DNA from: Candidatus Rifleibacterium sp.
GTDB taxonomy: Bacteria; Muiribacteriota; Ozemobacteria; Ozemobacterales; Ozemobacteraceae
Assembly (NCBI GenBank): GCA_035362315.1
Contig: DAOSDJ010000014.1
Location: forward strand, 9,419 to 73,418
Direction: 5' to 3'
DNA length: 64,000 nucleotides
Part shown: positions 3,012 to 54,436 of the stretch, one piece after another
How the letters are laid out: every line of letters starts with the position of its first letter
How positions within the stretch are numbered: the stretch's first letter is position 1
Made by a program: the position numbers and the translations under genes
Notes under the pieces: model-generated
Seen by the model: only the letters and a program-made list of their open reading frames with translations
Told to the model about the DNA's origin: nothing
Databases searched by the model: none

Positions 3012-4289
3012 TCAGGCCGGGTCGAGAACAGTCAGGAATTTGTCGACGGCGGTGAAAAGCTCACCGGTCAGTTTGAGCATAAAAAAGCGGTCTTTGAGGT
3101 TGCCGGCGGTGATAAAGGTCTTTTCCTGGTCGGCAAGGCGAAAAATCGAAGGATCAGACTCGCGGAATGCTGTCTGCATTCTTGTGATGAAGTTGCGATA
3201 ACGGCTTTCGATCTCGGCGGCCGGCACTTCGTCACTGAAACTGCGGTTGGCAAAAAGAATGCGGTTGATGTTGAAAAGCCGTATAACCAGCTGGCGCTGG
3301 TGTTTCGGCGATCGGGTATTTTTGCTCTGCTGCTCGTAACGTTCAGCAACCCTGAAAAGACAATTGAAAAACAGGCGGCGCAGCTGACGATAAAACAGGC
3401 CGCCGCGTTCGATGCGGCTCTCAACGACGTATTTCTCAGGCTTCGGAACGGCAGCAAGAAAGCTGATCTGCTTGTTTGCCTCTTCGGCATGACCTTTGAG
3501 ACTCATCATCAAGCGCAGCAGGTCTCTGGCAAGCTCAAAATACATGCGAGTACACTTTTCGTAATCTTCAGACGCAGGAGATGAGACAATTTCTAAACTG
3601 CGGGCCTTCTGGTAGCGTTCTTTAAATTCAGCTGAGTTAAGCCAGTCGTTACAGGCATAATATACATGGCCAATATCAAGCAGCAGTTTTTCGGCACCGG
3701 CACTGCTGACTTTGCTGCCAAGGGCGGCACCCGGGGCATTGAACACATCTTTTACCAGTCGATTTTTCACCTCGGCATCTGATAGAGCGAAGGTTGTCAG
3801 CACTTCCTTTTCGCCGGTAAACGAAAGAATTCTCGTTGATGTAAGCGAACCACCCTTGCCCGAAGCAGCTTTCCAGTTAAAACCGGCGTTGATTTCATAG
3901 AATCCGGTAGTTTTTTTTCCGGAAACCTTGAGATTGAAGTTTTCCTTGAGAAGTTTGTGCAGGTTTGGGGTTTCGGTGTCGGTTATGCCCGGGTTCGAAA
4001 AGAAAATTGTCTCTCTGTCAGTCACAAAGGTCGAAAACGGGTAGAGCGCGCCGTCGGCATCGGCCAGACCGATCGCCTGCAGGCCATGCGGGTTCAGGTC
4101 GGCCTCCTGGTAGCATTGCTCGAGCACTTTCTCAGTCAGAGAAGCCGCGAGGAAATTTTCCGAAGTGAAGGTGGTTTCTTTTTTAAAGCTGTGCATGGCC
4201 TGAAAAAAAATAATCGAGGCCGAAACCAGCAGAAAAAAGCCGATCAGCAGTTCAAGCAGTGTCATACCACGGTTTGCTCGCTGGTTCAT
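3012..4289 (-). CDS. large type IV pilin-like / pseudopilin protein with prepilin N-terminal cleavage-methylation motif
   Basis: N-terminus MNQRANRG|MTLLELLIGFFLLV has G at -1 and E at +5, followed by a hydrophobic helix. 425 aa. Confidence 0.6.
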   Translation of the reverse strand: MNQRANRGMTLLELLIGFFLLVSASIIFFQAMHSFKKETTFTSENFLAASLTEKVLEQCYQEADLNPHGLQAIGLADADGALYPFSTFVTDRETIFFSNPGITDTETPNLHKLLKENFNLKVSGKKTTGFYEINAGFNWKAASGKGGSLTSTRILSFTGEKEVLTTFALSDAEVKNRLVKDVFNAPGAALGSKVSSAGAEKLLLDIGHVYYACNDWLNSAEFKERYQKARSLEIVSSPASEDYEKCTRMYFELARDLLRLMMSLKGHAEEANKQISFLAAVPKPEKYVVESRIERGGLFYRQLRRLFFNCLFRVAERYEQQSKNTRSPKHQRQLVIRLFNINRILFANRSFSDEVPAAEIESRYRNFITRMQTAFRESDPSIFRLADQEKTFITAGNLKDRFFMLKLTGELFTAVDKFLTVLDPA

Positions 4290-11826: not shown

Positions 11827-12000
11827 GGTTTCACAAATCAAGAGTCAAGTTTCGCACAGATTTATTTAAAAATTTTAAAATTCTTCATTTAATTAATTTT
11901 CGGGCAAGCAGCTTGAATTAATGGGCACTTTGTGGTTATGCTGCTTTCACAGGAGTCTGTTTTTCGGGTAAAAACTGAACCCGAAAGAAAGGGGAAAATA

Positions 12001-12804
12001 ATGACTTCAAAATCTCTCTTCAGAAGTATCGTATTGTTAACTGCCTTTGTACTGGTCTTGTCTTCGGCTTATGCCATGATCGGCCGTAACATCTGCGGCA
12101 AGTGCAACTGGATCAACAAAGCTGAAACCATTCTCTGCGAAAACTGCCAGAACCCGCTCAACCACTGCCTCAAATGCGGTCACGACAACATGGCCAAGGC
12201 TGACTACTGCGCCAACTGTTCTATGCCGCTTGCCGAAATGCGTGTGCTCGCCACTATCGCACCCGAAGTAAGAACCCAGCTCAAGCTCGGTGAATCTCCG
12301 CGGGCCGTTGCCGACCTCGAAATCAAGCGCCTTGAATACCTGCTGCAGACCGACGCTGAAAACGCCGAAAAGCACCTGTTCAACCTCGCCATGACCCACA
12401 AACGCATTGATTTCTATTCACGCGAATCTGCTCTCTGGCTCGATTTCCTGCAGAAGTATCCGAATTCGGAAAAAGCCGCCGAAGCCAAAGTTAACGGTTC
12501 AGACTCTCTGCGCAAATGGAGCTACCTGCTTTACTCTCAGGGCTCATACGCCCGCGCCGTCGAACTTCTCAACGAATCGCTGCGCCTCAACCCCGCCAAC
12601 AAAGAAGCCCAGAAGTGGCTTAAAATCGCCCGCGGCGGTATGAAGAAGAGTGGCCAGACTGCTGTTGCAAAACCTCAGGCTGTCGAAGCCACCGAAGCCG
12701 CGCCGCAGATGGAAGAAGCCCAGCCGGCCCCAAAAACTGAAGCAACCCCGGCAGTAGAAGCCGCTCCAGCAACTGAAGCCGCACCACAGACCGGTAATCC
12801 ATAA
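12001..12804 (+). CDS. membrane-anchored double zinc-ribbon protein with TPR-like C-terminal region
   Basis: RBS aaagggg. TM/signal LFRSIVLLTAFVLVLSSAYA. Cys pairs CGKC...CENC...CLKC...CANC. Helical repeats follow. Confidence 0.6.
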   Translation: MTSKSLFRSIVLLTAFVLVLSSAYAMIGRNICGKCNWINKAETILCENCQNPLNHCLKCGHDNMAKADYCANCSMPLAEMRVLATIAPEVRTQLKLGESPRAVADLEIKRLEYLLQTDAENAEKHLFNLAMTHKRIDFYSRESALWLDFLQKYPNSEKAAEAKVNGSDSLRKWSYLLYSQGSYARAVELLNESLRLNPANKEAQKWLKIARGGMKKSGQTAVAKPQAVEATEAAPQMEEAQPAPKTEATPAVEAAPATEAAPQTGNP

Positions 12805-12832
12805 AACCAATCACCAACGTCTGACAAAACAA

Positions 12833-12875
12833 ATCAGCTCCGCTCGCCACAAGGCAAACGGAGCTGATTTTTTTC
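12833..12875 (+). terminator. rho-independent terminator between convergent genes
   Basis: atcagctccg - 16 nt loop - cggagctgat followed by a T7 run. Lies between the 12804 stop (+) and the 12924 stop (-). Confidence 0.7.
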
Positions 12876-12923
12876 CCCGGTTTTTTGTCCCATCCAGCCG
12901 GGGCCAGAATATTTGTCCTTACT

Positions 12924-13835
12924 TTACAGACGCAGTTTTTTAACCAGGACCCCGGGTTCGTTTCCGGGGGCTTTTTCGGCAAGCAGAATACTGCCATCGG
13001 GCGAGAGGCGACAGAAGCGCTGCATTTCAAGCCCGGACGGGCCGCTAATCTTCTTTTCAGCCAGAGTTTTGCCTTCGGCACTGACCGCATAGAGGGTAAA
13101 TTCACTGTCGAGTTCGCCACTGCCGGTGATTACAAGAAAAATACTGCGTTTCTGGTCATCACAGCCCAGAAACTCAACCGACTTCAGCACTCGCGGTAAC
13201 GCAGGCAATGGCGCTTTCCAGAAAATGCCGCCAGCCTGATGAATGACCACGCTGCCGACTGTCGAGCTGGCAGCCTCCGGCACCGGCGGCGGTATAATAA
13301 ATGGTTCCCCGCTCATGCCACAAAGCAGCGAAGCATGATTTGCCAGTTTTACCACCGGTTTTTCGTTTTCGAGAACCAGAGTATTGCCATCGGCATCACG
13401 GATGGCAAAACCGCTGCCGCGGCGATCGAGATTGAGGAGATTCAGGGCCGCCGCCTCAGGGTCCGAGGCTCTGACGATCTGGTATTCAGCCGGCTTTTCA
13501 AGATCGAGCACAAAAATCACCGGAAAAGCAAAACCGCAGAACCAGGCATTGTTGCCATCAACAACGAGGTCGCAGAAACGATCATCGGGCTTGGATTCAA
13601 CAACCGGAGGCAGAGTCAGTGCACTGCTGGCTCCGTCAGGAGCAAGGCGCACCAGCTGATGATCAGTGCCCAGAAGAAACACCGAACCATCACTCCGGCC
13701 AGCCAGTGAAAGAAAACTTCCCGGCACCAAAACACCGGCATCAAAAGCTGTCGCGGCGGCCGCGGCAGGTTCAGCGGCCGTTGTTGCAGAAAAAGGCATA
13801 AACAAAGCAAGTGCCATAATCATAAACTTGATCAT
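12924..13835 (-). CDS. secreted hypothetical protein (possible beta-propeller)
   Basis: Start MIKFMIMALALFMPFSATTAAEP with RBS ggag 7 nt upstream. Repetitive Gly/Asp-containing segments. Confidence 0.55.
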   Translation of the reverse strand: MIKFMIMALALFMPFSATTAAEPAAAAATAFDAGVLVPGSFLSLAGRSDGSVFLLGTDHQLVRLAPDGASSALTLPPVVESKPDDRFCDLVVDGNNAWFCGFAFPVIFVLDLEKPAEYQIVRASDPEAAALNLLNLDRRGSGFAIRDADGNTLVLENEKPVVKLANHASLLCGMSGEPFIIPPPVPEAASSTVGSVVIHQAGGIFWKAPLPALPRVLKSVEFLGCDDQKRSIFLVITGSGELDSEFTLYAVSAEGKTLAEKKISGPSGLEMQRFCRLSPDGSILLAEKAPGNEPGVLVKKLRL

Positions 13836-13852
13836 ATTTTTACTCCACGCCG

Positions 13853-15160
13853 TCAATTCAGGGTCATGGCTGCGTGATAACAGCCACCGCCGTTCCACCA
13901 GGCCGAGAAGCTGTCAAACGACCTGACCTGCGGCACCGGGTCTTTGGCGGGATCATTATAATAAATATTGCCGCTGTCATCCACACCGGTAATAACGACA
14001 TAGTGGTTGTAGACGTTGGCAATAACCGGCTTGCCGGCCTTTATCTGCTCGCGCACCCACGACAAACCAACGCTGTAATGCCATTTTGCATTCGGGAAAC
14101 CATTGGCCCTGGCCCCGGTGAGCATACCAGCATGCGAAGTGCCCGCTGCGCCGGTCGAGCCACAGGTATTCCAGAGCGTAGAGGCCAGAGCGCCGGCATT
14201 CTGCTTGTTGTGATAGGCAAGAGCCATGCCGAGAGAAGTTGGACCACAGGCAGACCACGGGTATGGGCATTTAACATAACCCTGGCACTGCTGCGGCACG
14301 GGCAGAACGACCTTGCCATTGGCACCGGCAGCCGGGGTCACCGGAGTAGTGGTGCCAGAAGAAGGCTTAGAAGAAGAAACATAGCTGGCATGGCAATAAA
14401 CGATGCGCCCGTTCCAGCTGACTCTGTACCAGTCACCTTCTTTGCCGACGATATCGATCTTCGTGCCATAATTGAAAGTGGTGAGAATCGAGCCCCACGG
14501 GGCACTTCTGACATTGAGAACATCGGCAGTGACATAACCAGCCGAGGTGGCAGGAGTGCTGGCAGGCTGAGCCGGCGCAGTCGAAGAAGCACTGTCGGCG
14601 TTGATATAGGCCGAATGGCAATAGCCAACCGCGCCATTATAACTGACCCGGTACCATTCACCTTCCTGGCCAAGAATAGAGACTCTGGCACCGTTGGCGA
14701 ATGAACCGACGATGCTTCCCCACGGGCCGGTGCGAACATTCAGGCCCGGCACAGCGTTGACAGTACCACCGCGGGCAGCTGATGCCGCCGGCGTCGAGCT
14801 CTGAGTTATATATGCTGAATGGCAATAACCAACCGTGCCATTATAACTGACTTTGTACCATTCGCCCTCCTGGCCGATTACGGTCACGCTGGCGCCATTT
14901 CCGAATGAGCCGATGATCGCCCCCCACGGGCCATTACGAATATTGAGGCCAGGTATGGCCCTGACTGTACCACTGAAGGAACCACCCATGCCTGATGGAG
15001 CAGTAGAAGCTTCGGGCTGGCTTTTTGCCGGGTCAGAGATGACGACGGAACTCTGTCCGAAGACATCTGCAGCCGTCTGGGCTTTCAGCAGGTCCGATCC
15101 TGCGAAAACAAACAGGGGCAGCAACAGTAAAACAAAGACAAAATAATTTATGGGTTTCAT
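13853..15160 (-). CDS. secreted protein with three tandem SH3b domains and a C-terminal C39-like (papain-fold) peptidase domain
   Basis: RBS ggagg. Signal peptide MKPINYFVFVLLLLPLFVFA. Three repeats of GLNxRxGPWGxIxGSFxNGxxVxxxGQEGEWYxVSYNG. The C-terminus CGPTSLGMALAYH...H resembles the Peptidase_C39-like fold. Confidence 0.65.
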   Translation of the reverse strand: MKPINYFVFVLLLLPLFVFAGSDLLKAQTAADVFGQSSVVISDPAKSQPEASTAPSGMGGSFSGTVRAIPGLNIRNGPWGAIIGSFGNGASVTVIGQEGEWYKVSYNGTVGYCHSAYITQSSTPAASAARGGTVNAVPGLNVRTGPWGSIVGSFANGARVSILGQEGEWYRVSYNGAVGYCHSAYINADSASSTAPAQPASTPATSAGYVTADVLNVRSAPWGSILTTFNYGTKIDIVGKEGDWYRVSWNGRIVYCHASYVSSSKPSSGTTTPVTPAAGANGKVVLPVPQQCQGYVKCPYPWSACGPTSLGMALAYHNKQNAGALASTLWNTCGSTGAAGTSHAGMLTGARANGFPNAKWHYSVGLSWVREQIKAGKPVIANVYNHYVVITGVDDSGNIYYNDPAKDPVPQVRSFDSFSAWWNGGGCYHAAMTLN

Positions 15161-45506: not shown

Positions 45507-45821
45507 CTAGAAGCCGGTAAAAAGAAAATCGAGCGCAGAAATAATGCTCTGGCGATGCTCCTTTAAGGAAGTAACGAACTTCCCAAGGGCCTGGACCGGA
45601 ATGCCTGCCAACTCAGATGTTGACAGGAAAACAGCCTTCTTTTTGACGCGAAATTTTGGCTGGAGATACTCGACGGTCCTGCTCTTCGGAGATACATATG
45701 CAAGCGGCGCGACCACCCGGGTAGCAAGCCCATCAAGGAGATCGGACTGAAGATCGAGAAGATAAGGAAAATTCTTCTTCGATTGCTCATTCGGATTCTC
45801 ATACACATCAAACTGTGCCAT
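45507..45821 (-). CDS. ccdB: CcdB-family toxin (DNA gyrase poison)
   Basis: MAQFDVYENP...YLLDLQSDLLDGLATRVVAPL...ALDFLFTGF aligns with F-plasmid CcdB (MQFKVYTYK...VDVQSDIIDTPGRRMVIPL...NLMFWGI). Confidence 0.75.
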   Translation of the reverse strand: MAQFDVYENPNEQSKKNFPYLLDLQSDLLDGLATRVVAPLAYVSPKSRTVEYLQPKFRVKKKAVFLSTSELAGIPVQALGKFVTSLKEHRQSIISALDFLFTGF

Positions 45822-46066
45822 TAAAAACTCCTCAAGCCATCACTGAATACGCCAGTCGCGACGTGGCTGTTATATTGCTCTATGGCCTCGCGGTTGTCTT
45901 CCTTCCATTTACGACGTTTTTCCTCTAGCAATAGCTCTGCAAGGCGATGTTCCAGAGCCCTGGAAAGATTTATCCCACTCTTCTTTGCCAGCATCAGGAG
46001 ATCGCTGTTTATACTAAGATTGGTGGGCTTCTTCGGAGCTTTTTGATCAAATATATTTAAGTTCAT
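45821..46066 (-). CDS. ccdA: CcdA-family antitoxin
   Basis: RBS aggag. MNLNIFDQKAPKKPTNLSINSDLLMLAKKSGINLSRALE...WKEDNREAIEQYN matches the CcdA pattern. Overlaps ccdB by 1 nt. Confidence 0.7.
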   Translation of the reverse strand: MNLNIFDQKAPKKPTNLSINSDLLMLAKKSGINLSRALEHRLAELLLEEKRRKWKEDNREAIEQYNSHVATGVFSDGLRSF

Positions 46067-46351
46067 ACAACACTCCTGTGCGCATATATTATACACATAT
46101 AATAGCAATTATTATGCGCATAAGCAAGCCGTTTCCTGCAGGTGGTCGGTTTCATAAATTAAAGATGGGCGCTTATAATTGTCTGAGTTATCTGGTTCAG
46201 GATGACGAAAAGCATACTTTTGCTCTGTCTGTGATGAAAAAATTTGCTTAATAGCGGTTTAACGGTATAATTCAGGGGTTCATACACACCGACCGCCATT
46301 CATCACATAGAAACACCCGGGCGGTAGAGGCTTAAACAGGGAGAAACCCGG

Positions 46352-47509
46352 ATGATTGAAAGTGGCTTTGCATTCATTGCGGCACTGCTGTTCATTGCAG
46401 CCGTAATCGTGCAGCTCGACAAGAAATTTCGCACTTTTTTCGAATATGTGCCCGGCATCGTCGTGCTGTATTTTCTGGTGATGACACTGTCGACTCTCGG
46501 CTTCTGGAAACAGACCGACGAAATCAACTTTTACTACACCCAGCTCAAAAACAACATTCTGCCGGCAATGATCTTTCTGATGCTGCTGCACTGCGACCTG
46601 AAGAAGATTCTCAAACTCGGGCCGCGCATGCTGCTTGGCTTTTTCTCAGCCTCTTTCACGATCGCCGTCGGCTTTATCGTCGTCTATTTTCTTTTCAAAG
46701 GTCACTTTGAGCCGCATACCTGGAAAACCTTCGCAGCTCTGTGCGGTTCCTGGATGGGCGGTACCGGCAATATGGCCGCAATTCAGCTGGCACTCGGAGT
46801 CGCAGACTCACAGATGGGTTACACCCTGATCATGGACTCGGTAAACTATGCGGTCTGGGTTATGCTGCTGCTGATGGTGGTGCCCTATGCCCGCCATTTC
46901 AACAACTGGACCAAAGCCGACACCAGCCAGATCGACGCGGTCGGCGCCAGCCTGATGAGCGAAAAAACCGACCAACCGTTGCCAACTACCTTTCATGATC
47001 TCATTCTGCTGCTCGGAAGCAGCTTTATGGTCGCTGCCGTTGCACAGTATCTGGCACCGATGCTGCCGACCTCGTCGTTCGTTTCGACCTACAGCTGGGT
47101 AGTTCTCATCGCCACCGCCGCCGGCATCATTGCGGCACTCACCCCGCTTGGCAGGACCTCGGGCATCTCGATGCTCGCCAGCCTGATGCTTTATCTGATC
47201 GTGGCCCTGATCGGCTCACGCGCCAATTTTGCCGAATTATCACAGGCGCCGTTTTACATTTTCTGCGGTTTTCTGATTCTGGTCATTCATGCGGTTCTTC
47301 TGGCACTGATTGCAAAAATCTTTAAACTCGACCTGTTCACCTGCGGCGTCGCCAGCCTGGCCAACATCGGCGGCGTTGCCTCGGCACCGATTCTGGCAGC
47401 CGCCTACAGCGAAGTGCTTGTGCCTGTCGGCGTTCTGATGTCGATGGTCGGCTACGTTATCGGCACCGGCGGCGGGCTGCTCGTCGGCAAAATCCTGTCA
47501 ATGATCTGA
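46352..47509 (+). CDS. DUF819-family integral membrane protein (putative transporter)
   Basis: About 10-12 TM helices. N-terminal FAFIAALLFIAAVIVQLDKKFRTFFEYVPGIVVLYF is typical of DUF819. Confidence 0.6.
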   Translation: MIESGFAFIAALLFIAAVIVQLDKKFRTFFEYVPGIVVLYFLVMTLSTLGFWKQTDEINFYYTQLKNNILPAMIFLMLLHCDLKKILKLGPRMLLGFFSASFTIAVGFIVVYFLFKGHFEPHTWKTFAALCGSWMGGTGNMAAIQLALGVADSQMGYTLIMDSVNYAVWVMLLLMVVPYARHFNNWTKADTSQIDAVGASLMSEKTDQPLPTTFHDLILLLGSSFMVAAVAQYLAPMLPTSSFVSTYSWVVLIATAAGIIAALTPLGRTSGISMLASLMLYLIVALIGSRANFAELSQAPFYIFCGFLILVIHAVLLALIAKIFKLDLFTCGVASLANIGGVASAPILAAAYSEVLVPVGVLMSMVGYVIGTGGGLLVGKILSMI

Positions 47510-50073: not shown

Positions 50074-50317
50074 CGACTAACCCCAAAATAACTGCTGATC
50101 CTGCAGGTTCGGCAAATCGCACAACTAGCAGCTTCAATAAGAGGCAACAGCTAAAAACCTTACAAACAAAGGTTTCTGGCTATTGCGAAAATCTTATCGA
50201 ATATGCTGGGCAATAACCGTATAATGCTTTTTATAAATTATTTATCTTTTTGTCACTGTATTAAAGCCGGTAAAATGGCTTTCTATTAAATAAAATTCAG
50301 AAATGTGAGTGATAATC

Positions 50318-53197
50318 ATGCCCTTGAGCTGGAACGAGATCAAAAGCCGCGCCGTAGCCTTTTCAAAAGAATGGGAAACCGAATCATCAGAAGACGCCGA
50401 AGCCAAATCCTTCTGGGACGGCTTTTTTAACGTTTTTGGCATTACCCGCAAACGCGTTGCCTCATTTGAAGAGCCGGTCAAAAAACTTGGAGCAAAGCAG
50501 GGCTTCATCGACCTTTTCTGGAAAGGCATTCTTCTGGTCGAACACAAATCACGCGGCAAGAATCTAGACCGCGCTTACACACAGGCTCTCGACTACTTTC
50601 CAGGCATTGAAGAACGCGACCTGCCGAAATACATCCTGGTCTCTGACTTTGCCAGATTTCGGCTCTACGACCTTGTCGAAAAAGAGCAGCACGAATTCAA
50701 CCTGAAAGATTTTCACAAAAATGTTCATTTGTTCGGCTTTGTTGCCGGCTATCAGAAACATAAAATTCGCGAAGAAGATCCGGTCAATATCAAAGCCGCC
50801 GAAAACATGGGCCGGCTTCACGACCAGCTAAAGGAAATCGGCTACGACGGTCATCAGCTTGAACTTTACCTGGTACGCCTGTTGTTTTGTCTATTTGCTG
50901 AAGATACCGGCATTTTTGAGCGCCGCATTTTTCAGGACTACATTGAAGAACGAACCTGCGAAGACGGCTCTGACCTGGCTCACCACTTAAGCACTGTGTT
51001 TCAGATATTGAACACACCGGAAAACAAACGCCTCAAAAATCTTGATGAACAGTTGGGCGCGTTTCCTTATGTTAACGGTAAGTTATTCGAAGAATTGCTT
51101 CCAACCGCCAGTTTTGACCAAAAAATGCGCCAAACTCTGCTTGACTGCTGCGCGCTCGACTGGAGCCGCATCTCACCTGCAATTTTTGGCTCATTATTCC
51201 AGTCGATCATGGACAAAACCGCACGCCGCAACCTTGGCGCACACTACACCAGCGAAAAGAACATTCTCAAGCTGATCAAGCCGTTGTTCCTCGACGAACT
51301 CCAGGAAGAATTCAACAAAGTAAAAACCAACAGGAACAAATTGGCTGAATTTCACCAGAAACTGCGTTCGTTGAAATTTCTCGACCCGGCCTGCGGCTGC
51401 GGAAACTTTCTGGTTATCGCTTATCGCGAACTGCGCCTGCTGGAACTGGAAGTAATAAGGTCATTACATGACAAGCGCCAGCAGATTCTCGATGTTCAAT
51501 CTCTTATTAAACTCGACGTTGACCAGTTTTACGGCATAGAAATTGAAGAATTCCCGGCCCAGATCGCTCAGGTAGCTTTGTGGCTGGTTGACCACCAGAT
51601 GAACATGCAGGTTTCTGAAGAGTTCGGCCTGTATTTCGCCCGCATACCTTTAAGGTCCAGCGGCACTATTGTGTGCGCTAACGCCCTGCAGATTAACTGG
51701 CAGAATCTTCTAAACCCGGTCAGCGCTCTAGATGCAACAGCGAAACATACGAACGTCTATTTAGTGAAAGATCCCGATGCGACTTATGAGACCATAAACG
51801 TTCACACGAAATCACTCAAAGTCCATAAGGGACCTGCTCCCACCGCATCAAAACCGGTTATTTTTGACTACATCATGGGCAATCCGCCTTTCATAGGCAA
51901 AAATTATCGTTCAAAAGAGCAAGATGCAGATATGCGCCGGGCCTTTAATAATGCTACCAATATTGAGCCTGTTAAATTGTACAAAAGCCTTGATTTTGTC
52001 GCTGCCTGGTATTATCTGGCGACAGATTACCTACACAAAAATAAAGACACGCGCGCGGCATTCGTCTCCACAAACAGCATTACTCAGGGCGAGCAGGTTT
52101 CTATTTTATGGTCGCCACTTTTAAAGGCCGGTCTGAAAATTAATTTTGCGCACCGCACATTCAGCTGGAATAGCGAAGCTAGAGGGAAAGCGGCTGTGCA
52201 TGTAGTAATCATTGGCTTTGGGCTGGTAGAAAATAAAGAAAAAAAACTGTTTGTTTATGATGACATCAAAGGCGAGCCACACAGTCTGGTTGCTAAAAAT
52301 ATTAATCCATACCTGCTTGATGCACCAAACATCGTTGTAGTTGCCAGAAAAAAACCAATAAGTAAAGTTCCTGAGATGGTAAATGGCAGTAAGCCAACTG
52401 ATGGTGGAAATTTACTGATGAGCGAAGAAGAGAAAGCCAAATTTCTGGAAATCGAACCAAAAGCAGCCCAATTTGTAAGGCGCTTCATGGGGTCTGAAGA
52501 GCTTATAAACAACCTACCCCGGTTTTGTATTTGGTTGGTTGATTGCCCACCGCACGCGCTCAGAGAAATGCCACATCTGATGAAACGTGTTGAAGCTGTT
52601 CAAGCAATGAGAAAAGCCAGCAGCAAAGAAGCGACGCAAAGAGATGCCAATAAGCCCTCATTATTTGCCGAAATTCGGCAACCAAGTTCAGATTTTATCG
52701 CAATACCAAAAACTTCTTCGGAAAAGAGATATTATAGCCCTGTTGCCCTTCTAGACAGGAACGTTGTTATAAGTACCGAACTCTTCTCGGTTGAAAATAC
52801 AACTCTTTACCATTTTGGAATTCTGGCCTCAACAATGCATAACGCTTGGCTACGTTCCGTAGCCGGGCGGCTAAAAAGCGATTATCGATATTCAGCCAGT
52901 CTGGTGTACAACAATTTTCCCTGGCCTACTAAGCCGTCAGAAAAACATATAGAAGAAGTTGAAACAGCCTCGAAAAAAATCCTTGAGGCCCGCAGCAAAT
53001 ACCACGAAAGCTCTCTGGCTGACCTCTACGACCCGAGATCAATGCCGCCTGACCTGGCAAAAGCCCACCAAAATCTTGACAGGGCAGTCGACACGGCTTA
53101 CGGCAAGTCCACCTTCAAAACAGAAGCCGACCGCGTTGCCTTCCTGTTTGAGCTTTATCAACGGTATGTCAGTGAAGCCGACACCGATTCTAAATAG
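50318..53197 (+). CDS. MmeI-family type IIL (IIG) restriction-modification enzyme (fused endonuclease-N6-adenine methyltransferase-TRD)
   Basis: N-terminus MPLSWNEIKSRAVAFSKEWE...FWDGFFNVFGI...GFIDLFWKGILLVEHKSRGKNLDRAYTQALDYF is nearly colinear with MmeI, including the D-x9-E-x-K nuclease motif. MTase motif I FLDPACGCGNFLV and motif IV GNPPFIGK. The low-GC gene is flanked by AT-rich DNA. Confidence 0.85.
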   Translation: MPLSWNEIKSRAVAFSKEWETESSEDAEAKSFWDGFFNVFGITRKRVASFEEPVKKLGAKQGFIDLFWKGILLVEHKSRGKNLDRAYTQALDYFPGIEERDLPKYILVSDFARFRLYDLVEKEQHEFNLKDFHKNVHLFGFVAGYQKHKIREEDPVNIKAAENMGRLHDQLKEIGYDGHQLELYLVRLLFCLFAEDTGIFERRIFQDYIEERTCEDGSDLAHHLSTVFQILNTPENKRLKNLDEQLGAFPYVNGKLFEELLPTASFDQKMRQTLLDCCALDWSRISPAIFGSLFQSIMDKTARRNLGAHYTSEKNILKLIKPLFLDELQEEFNKVKTNRNKLAEFHQKLRSLKFLDPACGCGNFLVIAYRELRLLELEVIRSLHDKRQQILDVQSLIKLDVDQFYGIEIEEFPAQIAQVALWLVDHQMNMQVSEEFGLYFARIPLRSSGTIVCANALQINWQNLLNPVSALDATAKHTNVYLVKDPDATYETINVHTKSLKVHKGPAPTASKPVIFDYIMGNPPFIGKNYRSKEQDADMRRAFNNATNIEPVKLYKSLDFVAAWYYLATDYLHKNKDTRAAFVSTNSITQGEQVSILWSPLLKAGLKINFAHRTFSWNSEARGKAAVHVVIIGFGLVENKEKKLFVYDDIKGEPHSLVAKNINPYLLDAPNIVVVARKKPISKVPEMVNGSKPTDGGNLLMSEEEKAKFLEIEPKAAQFVRRFMGSEELINNLPRFCIWLVDCPPHALREMPHLMKRVEAVQAMRKASSKEATQRDANKPSLFAEIRQPSSDFIAIPKTSSEKRYYSPVALLDRNVVISTELFSVENTTLYHFGILASTMHNAWLRSVAGRLKSDYRYSASLVYNNFPWPTKPSEKHIEEVETASKKILEARSKYHESSLADLYDPRSMPPDLAKAHQNLDRAVDTAYGKSTFKTEADRVAFLFELYQRYVSEADTDSK

Positions 53198-54244
53198 CTG
53201 ATTTTGCCCAAACACCAGTCGCTTTTTACTTTTAGCCTGGAAAAGTATGTAATTTATCCTTGCTACGTAGACGAACACGCATCCTGAAAACCATTCTAAA
53301 TATAAAGTCATCGGCTATGCATGCTCTAATGGTTCGGAGGTGAGTTCGGAGAAAATATTTCGCTTACTGTGAGAATTTCTCGTCACTTACCATGAATAGA
53401 TAGTTGAACGCTAAAAGACAATGGCTCGGATGAAAGCAAACAGGCTGCTTCGAAGGCATAAAACCTTTTCTTTACGCACAGTATAAGGGCAAAAGGGCGT
53501 TTTGAAAAGCCCACCGAAGAAATTTTCCCTGCAAAAAATTTTTACAGGGCTGCGTAAAGGAATTTTTCCCCGGCAATGTTTTTCAGCGGGTTGCGCGACG
53601 TTTTTGTCGCACAACCGGACTGGCTGTAACGACATTATTGGCGATTTTTCAATTTTTCGAGCTTGCCGCATGCGAGATTTTTCACAATACCGGCCACGCT
53701 GCAGCCGCCCCGGGAAGAGTGTAAACCTTTCGAATATTTTGCGACGGATAAATGGCTTCAGTGTCGATGGGTTTTTATGATTTTGTCGGTTGCGGGCGTT
53801 TATGTAGCACAACCGAATAACCTTATCAAGAGCGAGTTCGCTACGCTCATCGCCTTTGGCGACCCTTGACAATGTTATTCAGTTGTTCAGCATCGCAACT
53901 ATCGGCTGCTAAGCAGCCTTTTGCCAAAGGCCAGATTCATTATTACCGGGTTTATTGACCGGCAAACCGTCAAAAACGCCCACCGTCAATGAAGAATGGG
54001 TATAAATCTTGCGGGATACAGGGCGGTATCATTTGTAAGATTATTTCACAAACCTAGAGAGACAAAAGCAAGAGCGACATTAAGGCGTGGGGGCAGGCAA
54101 TGAAAAAAAAAGAGATCGATCACAAGAAGGTTTCGAAGAATGGCCAAGATTATGCAGTTCTTCCTTACTCAGTGTTTCTCGACCTGATAAAAGCATCGAC
54201 GGTTAACCTCGAAGGAGCAGACCTGAGTCACATGAATCTCGAAG

Positions 54245-54436
54245 ATGACCGGACGCGTTCTTGTCAGTGAATGGCGTAAATGCCTGAACCTCACCCAGGA
54301 AGAAGTGGCCGGCAAGATGGGCATTCCTGTGGTAGCCCTTGACCTGCTCGAAAAATCAGGGGCGAAACTGCGAAGAACAACGATCGAACAGCTCGCCGAA
54401 TCTTTAAACCTTGCACCGGCAAAGGCTTCCGAATAA
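54245..54436 (+). CDS. small XRE-type HTH protein (possibly the 3' part of a frameshifted ~110-aa antitoxin-like gene beginning at 54100)
   Basis: HTH LNLTQEEVAGKMGI. An upstream overlapping ORF 54100..54270 (MKKKEIDHKK...) lies in another frame. Confidence 0.45.
   Translation: MTGRVLVSEWRKCLNLTQEEVAGKMGIPVVALDLLEKSGAKLRRTTIEQLAESLNLAPAKASE

Follow-up and report, generated by a model that had tools for sequence, protein, structure and literature searches.

Among restriction enzymes whose specificity can be read and re-programmed, those of the MmeI family are the best understood, and tag-based sequencing makes use of their long-reach cutting. MmeI of Methylophilus methylotrophus recognizes TCCRAC and cuts at 20/18; CstMI, encoded on plasmid pTP10 of Corynebacterium striatum, belongs to the same family, recognizes AAGGAG and also cuts at 20/18. 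Previous work on MmeI defined the conserved nuclease residues D70, E80 and K82 (with E25 and E51) and the role of the helical arm with W287 (PMC2731913), and described His314 and Trp570 as absolutely conserved, together with motif I, (F)xDPACGCGxFL, and the NPPF motif (PMC4833311). No gene consistently accompanies the MmeI-family genes (PMC2731913). Here we describe a gene at positions 50318–53197 of a 64,000-nucleotide (nt) stretch (the window) of contig DAOSDJ010000014.1, from an uncultured Candidatus Riflebacteria bacterium, whose product is a full-length MmeI-family type IIL (IIG) restriction–modification (R–M) enzyme. Taking the evidence together, we consider it very probable that the locus holds a complete, probably active and solitary MmeI-family enzyme on acquired DNA of low guanine-plus-cytosine (GC) content, with CCGGAG as its predicted site.

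Family membership and integrity of the enzyme

All five MmeI Pfam domains were found in order, each far above its gathering score (E values from 1e-26 to 8e-92). A sequence search of the PDB returned a sole match, MmeI itself (5hr4_C; E=0, 1209 bits), which was colinear over residues 1–466 and 518–952, and the PADLOC model REase_MTase_IIG matched from end to end (E=0). An AlphaFold2 model built on a 117-sequence alignment had a mean predicted local distance difference test score (pLDDT) of 73.6, rising above 90 in the target recognition domain (TRD) and the C-terminal bundle. Foldseek comparison of this model with the PDB placed 5HR4 first (E=8.5e-77, template modelling score 0.85 on the target), with CamA, BpuSI, DrdV and PglX ranking far below. 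The family is large, and homologs detected at E below 1e-20 number more than 8,000. The assignment to the MmeI family, type IIL, made in an earlier note from the letters of the DNA, is thus borne out by the domains and by both the sequence and the structure searches. The gene and its parts are as follows.

50318–53197, plus strand: R–M gene, 959 amino acids (aa) plus stop, uninterrupted (open reading frame (ORF) list, Pfam, PDB, PADLOC)
50348–50836, plus strand: MmeI_N, PD-(D/E)XK endonuclease domain, aa 11–173 (Pfam)
50510–50548, plus strand: catalytic D65, E75 and K77; E25 and E51 are kept too
50852–51088, plus strand: MmeI_hel, helical spacer or 'arm', aa 179–257; W282 (MmeI W287) lies after the domain
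51314–52252, plus strand: MmeI_Mtase, gamma-class N6-adenine methyltransferase domain, aa 333–645
51377–51415, plus strand: motif I, FLDPACGCGNFLV, aa 354–366
51713–51868, plus strand: segment that does not align with MmeI, aa 466–517; the HMMER alignment splits at 466/518
51881–51892, plus strand: motif IV, NPPF, aa 522–525
52319–52930, plus strand: MmeI_TRD, target recognition domain, aa 668–871, closing in FPWP (aa 867–870)
Within the TRD region: specificity residues N689, K692, K770, A784, E785, K798, T799, T820, E821, L852, K853, D855 and R857
52940–53173, plus strand: MmeI_C, C-terminal helical bundle, aa 875–952

The reading frame contains no stop codon or frameshift within its 959 codons. 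An alternative GTG start lies at 50309; because an alignment of 117 family sequences shows no variation at M1, encoded by the ATG at 50318, we take 50318 as the correct start, which gives a protein of 959 aa beginning MPLSWNEIKSRA. Independent metagenomes (ENA, JGI and Logan) yielded 7 contigs that encode the identical protein, with the same neighbourhood each time. These results agree with the ORF coordinates given previously, and the other elements named from the letters were also recovered: the quoted N-terminal peptide, the D-x9-E-x-K nuclease motif (D65...E75-H-K77), and motifs I and IV. An inactivating disruption of the motif I/IV region was looked for, and both the nuclease and the methyltransferase motifs proved intact. 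The TRD, placed earlier at residues ~600–850, was nearly right by comparison with the Pfam boundaries.

All residues that earlier work on MmeI gives as catalytic or invariant, those for base flipping included, are kept, namely E25, E51, D65, E75 and K77 (the last three equivalent to MmeI D70/E80/K82), W282, H309 (H314), W617 (W570) and NPPF, with H309 and W617 as the two base-stacking residues. The same set is identical in 122 of 122 aligned sequences, except for the known F/Y alternative in NPPF, and F867-P868-W869-P870, the 'FPFP' motif of the family, is invariant or nearly so in the family alignment. Like MmeI, the protein is a single polypeptide of the same five domains, the identity between the two being 63% for the nuclease, 75% for the spacer and 66% for the methyltransferase domain. 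Over residues 621–825 the TRD differs from that of MmeI by a single gapped column and has neither the 7-aa insertion nor the 4-aa deletion of the enzymes that recognize 7 base pairs (bp), which places it, like MmeI, in the six-base-recognizing branch. The differences from MmeI are a 46-aa insert before NPPF, a TRD that is 41% identical in its N-terminal part (TRD-N) and 52% in its C-terminal part (TRD-C), minor-groove residues K-N-Y rather than K-S-K, and a predicted site of CCGGAG rather than TCCRAC.

Within ±10 kb of the gene we found no methyltransferase, helicase, BREX (bacteriophage exclusion), DISARM (defence island system associated with restriction–modification), integrase or transposase gene; the genes in this range are sensor, toxin–antitoxin, peptidoglycan-recycling, Major Vault Protein (MVP)-like, CorA and ABC genes only, and the foreign segment described below codes for the R–M gene alone. 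The two uncharacterized homologs from Ca. Rifleibacterium, P0002 and P0003, are 79% identical to the query and likewise solitary, one lying among housekeeping genes and the other beside HicAB and other toxin–antitoxin genes, in agreement with the published absence of constant partners. On these sequence features the enzyme is probably active and solitary.

By analogy with the family (PMC2731913, PMC4833311), an asymmetric 6-bp site would be clamped by the TRD together with the gamma-class methyltransferase, and the adenine at position 5 would be flipped out, to lie in the NPPF pocket between H309, F525 and W617. S-adenosylmethionine (AdoMet)-dependent N6 methylation of that adenine, on one strand only, would constitute the entire protection of the host. 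On unmodified DNA, two site-bound molecules would pair their flexibly tethered PD-(D/E)XK domains at the end of the helical arm and cut ~20/18 nt downstream, leaving a 2-nt 3′ overhang; enzymes of the family need two sites to cut efficiently. Activity and cut distance are extrapolated from the conservation of the nuclease and arm, 96–98% with relatives and 63–75% with MmeI.

Predicted recognition sequence

The residue-to-base rules established for TCCRAC from the MmeI crystal structure and from mutagenesis (PMC4833311, PMC2731914) allow a site to be predicted for the new enzyme. MmeI numbering was rebuilt from the PDB alignment, checked, and mapped to the query by two independent MAFFT alignments; all rules applied below come from the same two papers. 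At position 1, A723/F737/Y738 of MmeI correspond to K770/A784/E785, and Lys or Arg at 723 with Glu at 738 is the pattern of C-reading enzymes. At position 2, Y642/K645 correspond to N689/K692, and Lys645 correlates with C. At position 3, where MmeI has E751/N773, the query has K798/T820; G is read when residue 751 is Lys or Arg and residue 773 is Asp or Ser, and G would follow here if Thr, as a hydroxyl residue, can be likened to Ser. At position 4, A774/R810 become E821/R857, a combination of Glu and Arg proposed to read G in RpaB5I. The position-5 pair T752/L805, which serves the flipped adenine, is unchanged, and at position 6 E806/R808 become K853/D855, a K-x-D pair that switches C to G, as mutagenesis in both directions has demonstrated.

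Read in this way, the most likely site is 5′-CCGGAG-3′, methylated at A5, rather than TCCRAC. The complement, CTCCGG, lacks adenine, which fits the model of protection on one strand. As a control, the same mapping was applied to CstMI and gave A/Q, F/M, K/D, L/R and K/D, which read AAGGAG, its published site. Confidence differs along the predicted hexamer: G6 and A5 are assigned with high confidence, G4 and G3 with fairly high confidence, and C2 and C1 with moderate confidence. We give the hexamer, exact in every position, at best about an even chance, and regard it as nearly certain that the site is not TCCRAC.

The comparison with other characterized enzymes follows the same lines. CstMI is ~37% identical overall to the query and shares the K at 751, the R at 810 and the K-x-D at 806/808 that would read GGAG; it differs in the residues for positions 1 and 2 (A/Q and F/M, reading AA, versus K/E and N/K in the query, predicted to read CC) and carries D and L at the places of T820 and E821. 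RpaB5I (CGRGGAC) supplies the precedent for Glu at 774 with Arg at 810 reading G4, but it is a 7-bp-class protein of 1184 aa with TRD indels, and NmeAIII (GCCGAG) is the source of the mutagenesis-validated rule that K-x-D reads G6; both were compared by published description.

The earlier suggestion that the TRD might confer a new specificity gains support, because 9 of 11 variable specificity residues differ from MmeI (the T and L of position 5 are the same) and the published rules read CCGGAG. This hexamer is absent among the sites of the 21 enzymes in the 2009 table, and a literature search for CCGGAG as a known R–M or methylome motif gave only primer sequences and one unrelated phage paper. 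The 122 aligned sequences hold 74 distinct specificity signatures, a diversity that matches the known rapid diversification of the family, and the signature of the query is shared only by a 99% allele, P0001.

Several points weigh against the full hexamer. T820 and N689, at the positions of N773 and Y642, fall outside the set of residues for which the published rules were tested. The covariation at position 1 was described as 'not simple', and engineering there failed (PMC4833311, PMC2731914). The host sequence does not avoid CCGGAG (19 observed versus 18.7 expected under a fourth-order Markov model), a result that is uninformative rather than contrary. A depletion of CCGGAG seen against dinucleotide shuffles (19 versus 30.5) was discarded as a composition effect.

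Were CCGGAG true, the enzyme would be a natural data point extending the residue-to-base code, adding Thr at N773, Asn at Y642 and a K/E pair for the engineering-resistant C1, and possibly a new reagent specificity.

Insert, mosaic ancestry and the acquired cassette

Compared with MmeI and with 113 of the 120 top homologs, the enzyme carries exactly 46 extra residues, which lie within aa 466–517, after 'NALQINW' of the motif III region and before the strand that runs into NPPF. An insert of the same length occurs in only 5 of the 120 homologs (P0001, P0002, P0003, P0011 and P0023), one of which, P0023, is just 66% identical overall to the query. The inserts share the pattern P-x3-[IL]-D-x2-A-x3-N-[IV]...P-x3-Y-x2-[IV]-N...S-[FL]-x-V. 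Because both length and residue pattern are conserved across the five homologs, we take the insert to be a stable structural element, not damage. AlphaFold2 suggested three short strands in it, but pLDDT stayed below 50 throughout aa 463–524, and the model gave no placement of the insert with respect to DNA or AdoMet. Between the window allele and that at locus L007 there are 21 nt differences, of which 18, including all 8 amino-acid changes, fall in codons 450–626 and form a local patch around the insert.

The uncharacterized metagenomic homologs P0004–P0006 are 77–78% identical to the query overall, but this identity is distributed very unevenly: 96–97% in the nuclease, 97–98% in the spacer, 85% in the methyltransferase, 70% in TRD-N and 43–46% in TRD-C. 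Across P0002–P0006 the TRD-C is 43–49% identical to that of the query, and these proteins differ from it further in their specificity signatures and in lying at unrelated genomic loci; P0002 and P0003 share the 46-aa insert. At the DNA level, the homolog locus L016 matches with 89% identity as far as nt 51700 and with 70% past 51869. Divergence from L016 at four-fold sites is ~0.34 over aa 1–466 (169 sites) and ~0.70 over aa 621–872 (66 sites), and we conclude from these unequal values that the two halves of the gene have different histories. The pattern indicates a recombinant mosaic, produced by recombination rather than by differing constraint alone. In the nuclease and spacer, 96–98% protein identity to L016 goes with four-fold-site divergence of 0.29–0.34; such low protein divergence at ~0.3 synonymous divergence points to strong purifying selection on the nuclease arm, which argues for a working endonuclease.

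The insert before NPPF, the mosaic origin and the CCGGAG prediction go beyond the earlier note. They can be combined in a more specific proposal, which we put forward tentatively and think less likely to be right than wrong: that the beta-rich insert is a functional add-on and no neutral loop (for example, tuning the choice between methylation and cleavage, or dimerization) of a natural type IIL endonuclease of uncatalogued specificity, CCGG(m6A)G 20/18, whose gene is caught in the middle of a TRD swap onto a nearly fixed nuclease-arm module.

The gene stands on DNA that is foreign in composition, with the following features in and beside it.

About 50119–53510, no strand: foreign low-GC cassette with the R–M gene (blastn and alignments against L008, L009 and L010)
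50220–50225, plus strand: perfect TATAAT hexamer, 93 nt upstream of the ATG; candidate −10 element with no consensus −35
53527–53549, no strand: palindromic hairpin CCCTGCAAAAAATTTTTACAGGG, native, to the right of the cassette and kept in L008, L009 and L010
L009 11090–11530 and L010 2728–3180: segment with a 73-aa ORF of no known family, occupying the slot in these genomes

GC content over positions 50076–53510 (3,435 bp) is 0.448, the lowest of any segment of that length in the 64 kb (mean 0.517, s.d. 0.019); the 242 bp upstream of the ATG reach 0.347, and GC at third codon positions (GC3) of the gene is 0.494, compared with 0.63–0.73 in five neighbouring genes. The description of the gene and ~250 bp upstream as AT-rich therefore holds and is not due to chance. 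Between 50000 and 54250 GC runs at 0.42–0.48, versus 0.52–0.61 on either side, and the comparison of GC along this zone, which continues to ~54.2 kb, shows that it is composite: the cassette extends to 53510, 53511–53755 and 53995–54099 are native intergenic DNA, and 53756–53994 is a separate insertion. Gene order is DUF819, SH3/NlpC-P60 peptidase, MR_MLE epimerase, the R–M gene, a helix-turn-helix (HTH) gene, an MVP-like gene and CorA; the neighbour previously called ykfB-like fits the MR_MLE-type epimerase, preceded by the SH3/NlpC-P60 peptidase.

The R–M gene is missing from exactly the same slot in three closely related Riflebacteria genomes, L008, L009 and L010, whose flanking proteins are 94–100% identical to those of the window in core genes and 91–100% overall. 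In L008, 10 bp stand in place of window positions 50076–53510, and the equivalent of the hairpin at 53527–53549 lies ~30 nt past the epimerase stop. In L009 and L010 the slot holds another segment of ~440 nt with its own hairpin and the 73-aa ORF. The slot, which lies between the epimerase stop codon and the conserved hairpin, thus occurs in three forms: empty, with the small ORF, or with the R–M cassette. The left edge of the cassette falls at 50076 against L008 and at ~50119 against L009/L010, and the right edge at 53510 and 53518, respectively. Because the first ~45 nt of the window past the epimerase stop align with the left arm of the L009/L010 hairpin, we place the foreign DNA proper at ~50119–53510. 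Foreign composition together with absence from the same site in three closely related genomes supports the horizontal acquisition that the earlier note had proposed.

No direct or inverted repeats were found at the cassette ends, no tRNA or Rfam family nearby, and no close relatives on viral contigs; the non-coding flanks of the cassette are not shared with the homolog loci L016 and L017. Because neither mobility genes nor repeats are present, the cassette probably arrived by homologous or illegitimate recombination after DNA uptake. The gene could be transcribed by read-through from the upstream DUF819, NlpC-P60 and epimerase genes, the right arm of the hairpin there having been removed by the cassette, and the hairpin at 53527–53549 is a probable terminator that now lies 3′ of the R–M gene. 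A promoter of its own is also possible, with the TATAAT at 50220–50225; this hexamer is only a lead, and it tells against these assignments that in neither scan, for promoters or for terminators, did the number of sites exceed that in shuffled sequence.

Other explanations of the function have to be set against that of a complete, active enzyme. The protein could be an inactive relic or a methyltransferase-only protein in which the insert or other changes have abolished cleavage or methylation. There is precedent, since NmeAIII, DraRI and ApyPI are disrupted in their natural hosts (PMC2731913), and the insert abuts the catalytic NPPF loop in a part of the model of low confidence (pLDDT 27–50 over aa 420–524) and may affect catalysis, which counts against an active enzyme, as does the clustering around it of the differences from the L007 allele. 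We nevertheless regard a relic as distinctly unlikely: the 959 codons are uninterrupted with every catalytic and invariant residue kept, the insert keeps its length and a conserved pattern in five homologs down to 66% identity, as expected of a tolerated element, and the nuclease and spacer are under strong purifying selection. The intact nuclease residues also argue for intact methylation, as a nuclease without methylation would be lethal. A role as one subunit of a multi-gene defence system, such as BREX PglX, DISARM DrmMI or the nuclease-less YeeA–YeeB–YeeC type, is suggested by weak partial matches of the PglX and DrmMI models over the methyltransferase core and by Foldseek matches to PglX/BrxX and DrdV (E values of 1e-7 to 1e-9). 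BpuSI, DrdV and BREX PglX do share the architecture of a gamma-class methyltransferase with a TRD, but as a distant fold similarity at 10–12% identity; they differ in reach, oligomerization or need for partners, and their family models score far under the cut-offs. The NCBIfam PglX models gave 15–35 bits against cut-offs of 400–900 and the PADLOC DrmMI and PglX matches were partial, whereas a full PD-ExK N-terminal domain is present, unlike in the YeeA group. With no helicase, GIY-YIG, BrxA/B/C/L or Drm gene within ±10 kb and the R–M gene alone on the foreign segment, we find this explanation extremely improbable. Scarcely more credible is that the enzyme is an MmeI isoschizomer recognizing TCCRAC, as the 63–75% identity in the nuclease, spacer and methyltransferase domains might suggest; the TRD is far less similar (41% and 52% in its two parts), and the 9 of 11 specificity residues that differ include the validated switches E806K/R808D (C6 to G6) and E751K (C3 to G3).

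A further alternative concerns origin only, not function: the gene may be ancestral at the site and have been lost from L008, L009 and L010. The direction of change could indeed be gain here or loss in L008, and it speaks against a simple gain that L008 has the right-junction octamer of the window, CACCGAAG, which L009 and L010 lack, so that the 'empty' state of L008 could be a deletion. However, GC3 is 0.49 in the gene and 0.63–0.73 in host genes, and the homologs in other Riflebacteria sit at unrelated loci. L009 and L010 hold the 73-aa ORF and a hairpin of which the window keeps only the left arm, which fits a cassette that replaced such a state. We therefore consider ancestral presence improbable, and even with a loss in L008 the original arrival would still have been horizontal.

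A complete enzyme on an acquired cassette leaves the understanding of the family unchanged, and the locus is a useful annotation rather than a surprise. It does offer a clean natural case of an R–M gene as strain-variable cargo in the uncultured phylum Riflebacteria, in a slot with three alternative states, and of nuclease and recognition halves with separate histories.

Other variation around the locus

Further differences among alleles lie at the 3′ side of the cassette. In its 3′ non-coding tail (53332–53355) the 24-nt unit GTTCGGAGGTGAGTTCGGAGAAAA, composed of two 12-nt half-units, occurs once in the window and twice in L007 (~3820–3870). A minus-strand ORF at 53411–53872 (153 aa), annotated in several metagenomes, spans the junctions at 53510 and 53756; because it crosses both the cassette/native boundary and that of the adjacent insertion, we regard it as chimeric and spurious.

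The insertion at 53756–53994 (239 bp) resembles a miniature inverted-repeat transposable element (MITE). It consists of a 234-bp element with imperfect terminal inverted repeats, CTTCAGTGTCGATGGG and CTTCATTGACGGTGGG, and a 5-bp target duplication, AATGG, and is absent from the otherwise 98–99% identical L007 and L008. The element folds strongly as single-stranded DNA (z=−3.8), and 4 of the 6 metagenome contigs with the R–M gene break inside it while a fifth ends at its right edge (53797–53994). Searches of the window and of the fetched loci gave no further copy. A 21-mer search of metagenomes returned one match, L019, an unrelated chance hit, in a collection that also missed known JGI copies.

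The HTH_3 gene at 54100–54436 is native and outside the cassette, and is intact in L007–L010, with L007 and L008 copies of 111 aa. An additional C at 54249/54250 (GATGACCGG versus GATGACGG) splits it, in the window and in L001, into ORFs of 56 and 63 aa. As a controller (C) protein of the R–M gene it was rejected as unlikely, being native and intact in L008–L010, which have no MmeI-family gene.

The next gene, on the minus strand at 54512–57061, encodes an 849-aa protein with an MVP shoulder and Vault_3 repeats, weak SPFH/Band-7 similarity and a long C-terminal coiled coil, and is conserved beside CorA in several Riflebacteria. Between the HTH and MVP genes, L008 carries a 2.3-kb insertion (11855–14197) that encodes a 735-aa membrane protein with a weak spermidine-synthase-like domain.

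CTCGAG and TTCGAA are the most under-represented hexamers in the host part of the window under the fourth-order Markov model (10 observed versus 46 expected, z=−6.8, and 60 versus 88, z=−4.3, respectively), a sign that the lineage may long have been exposed to XhoI-like and AsuII-like restriction systems. A CcdB/CcdA toxin–antitoxin pair lies on the minus strand at ~45507–46066, mapped from L001 5190–5749, in a region where GC dips to 0.41–0.43 (45750–46500); the pair, ~4 kb upstream of the R–M cassette, may represent a further small islet of acquired DNA. In the Riflebacteria metagenome-assembled genome L017 (4657–9243), P0003 lies just past the MVP–CorA pair, beside HicB, HicA-like, HTH_37 and 'Unstab_antitox' genes, and in this phylum defence and addiction genes may repeatedly land in the MVP–CorA neighbourhood.

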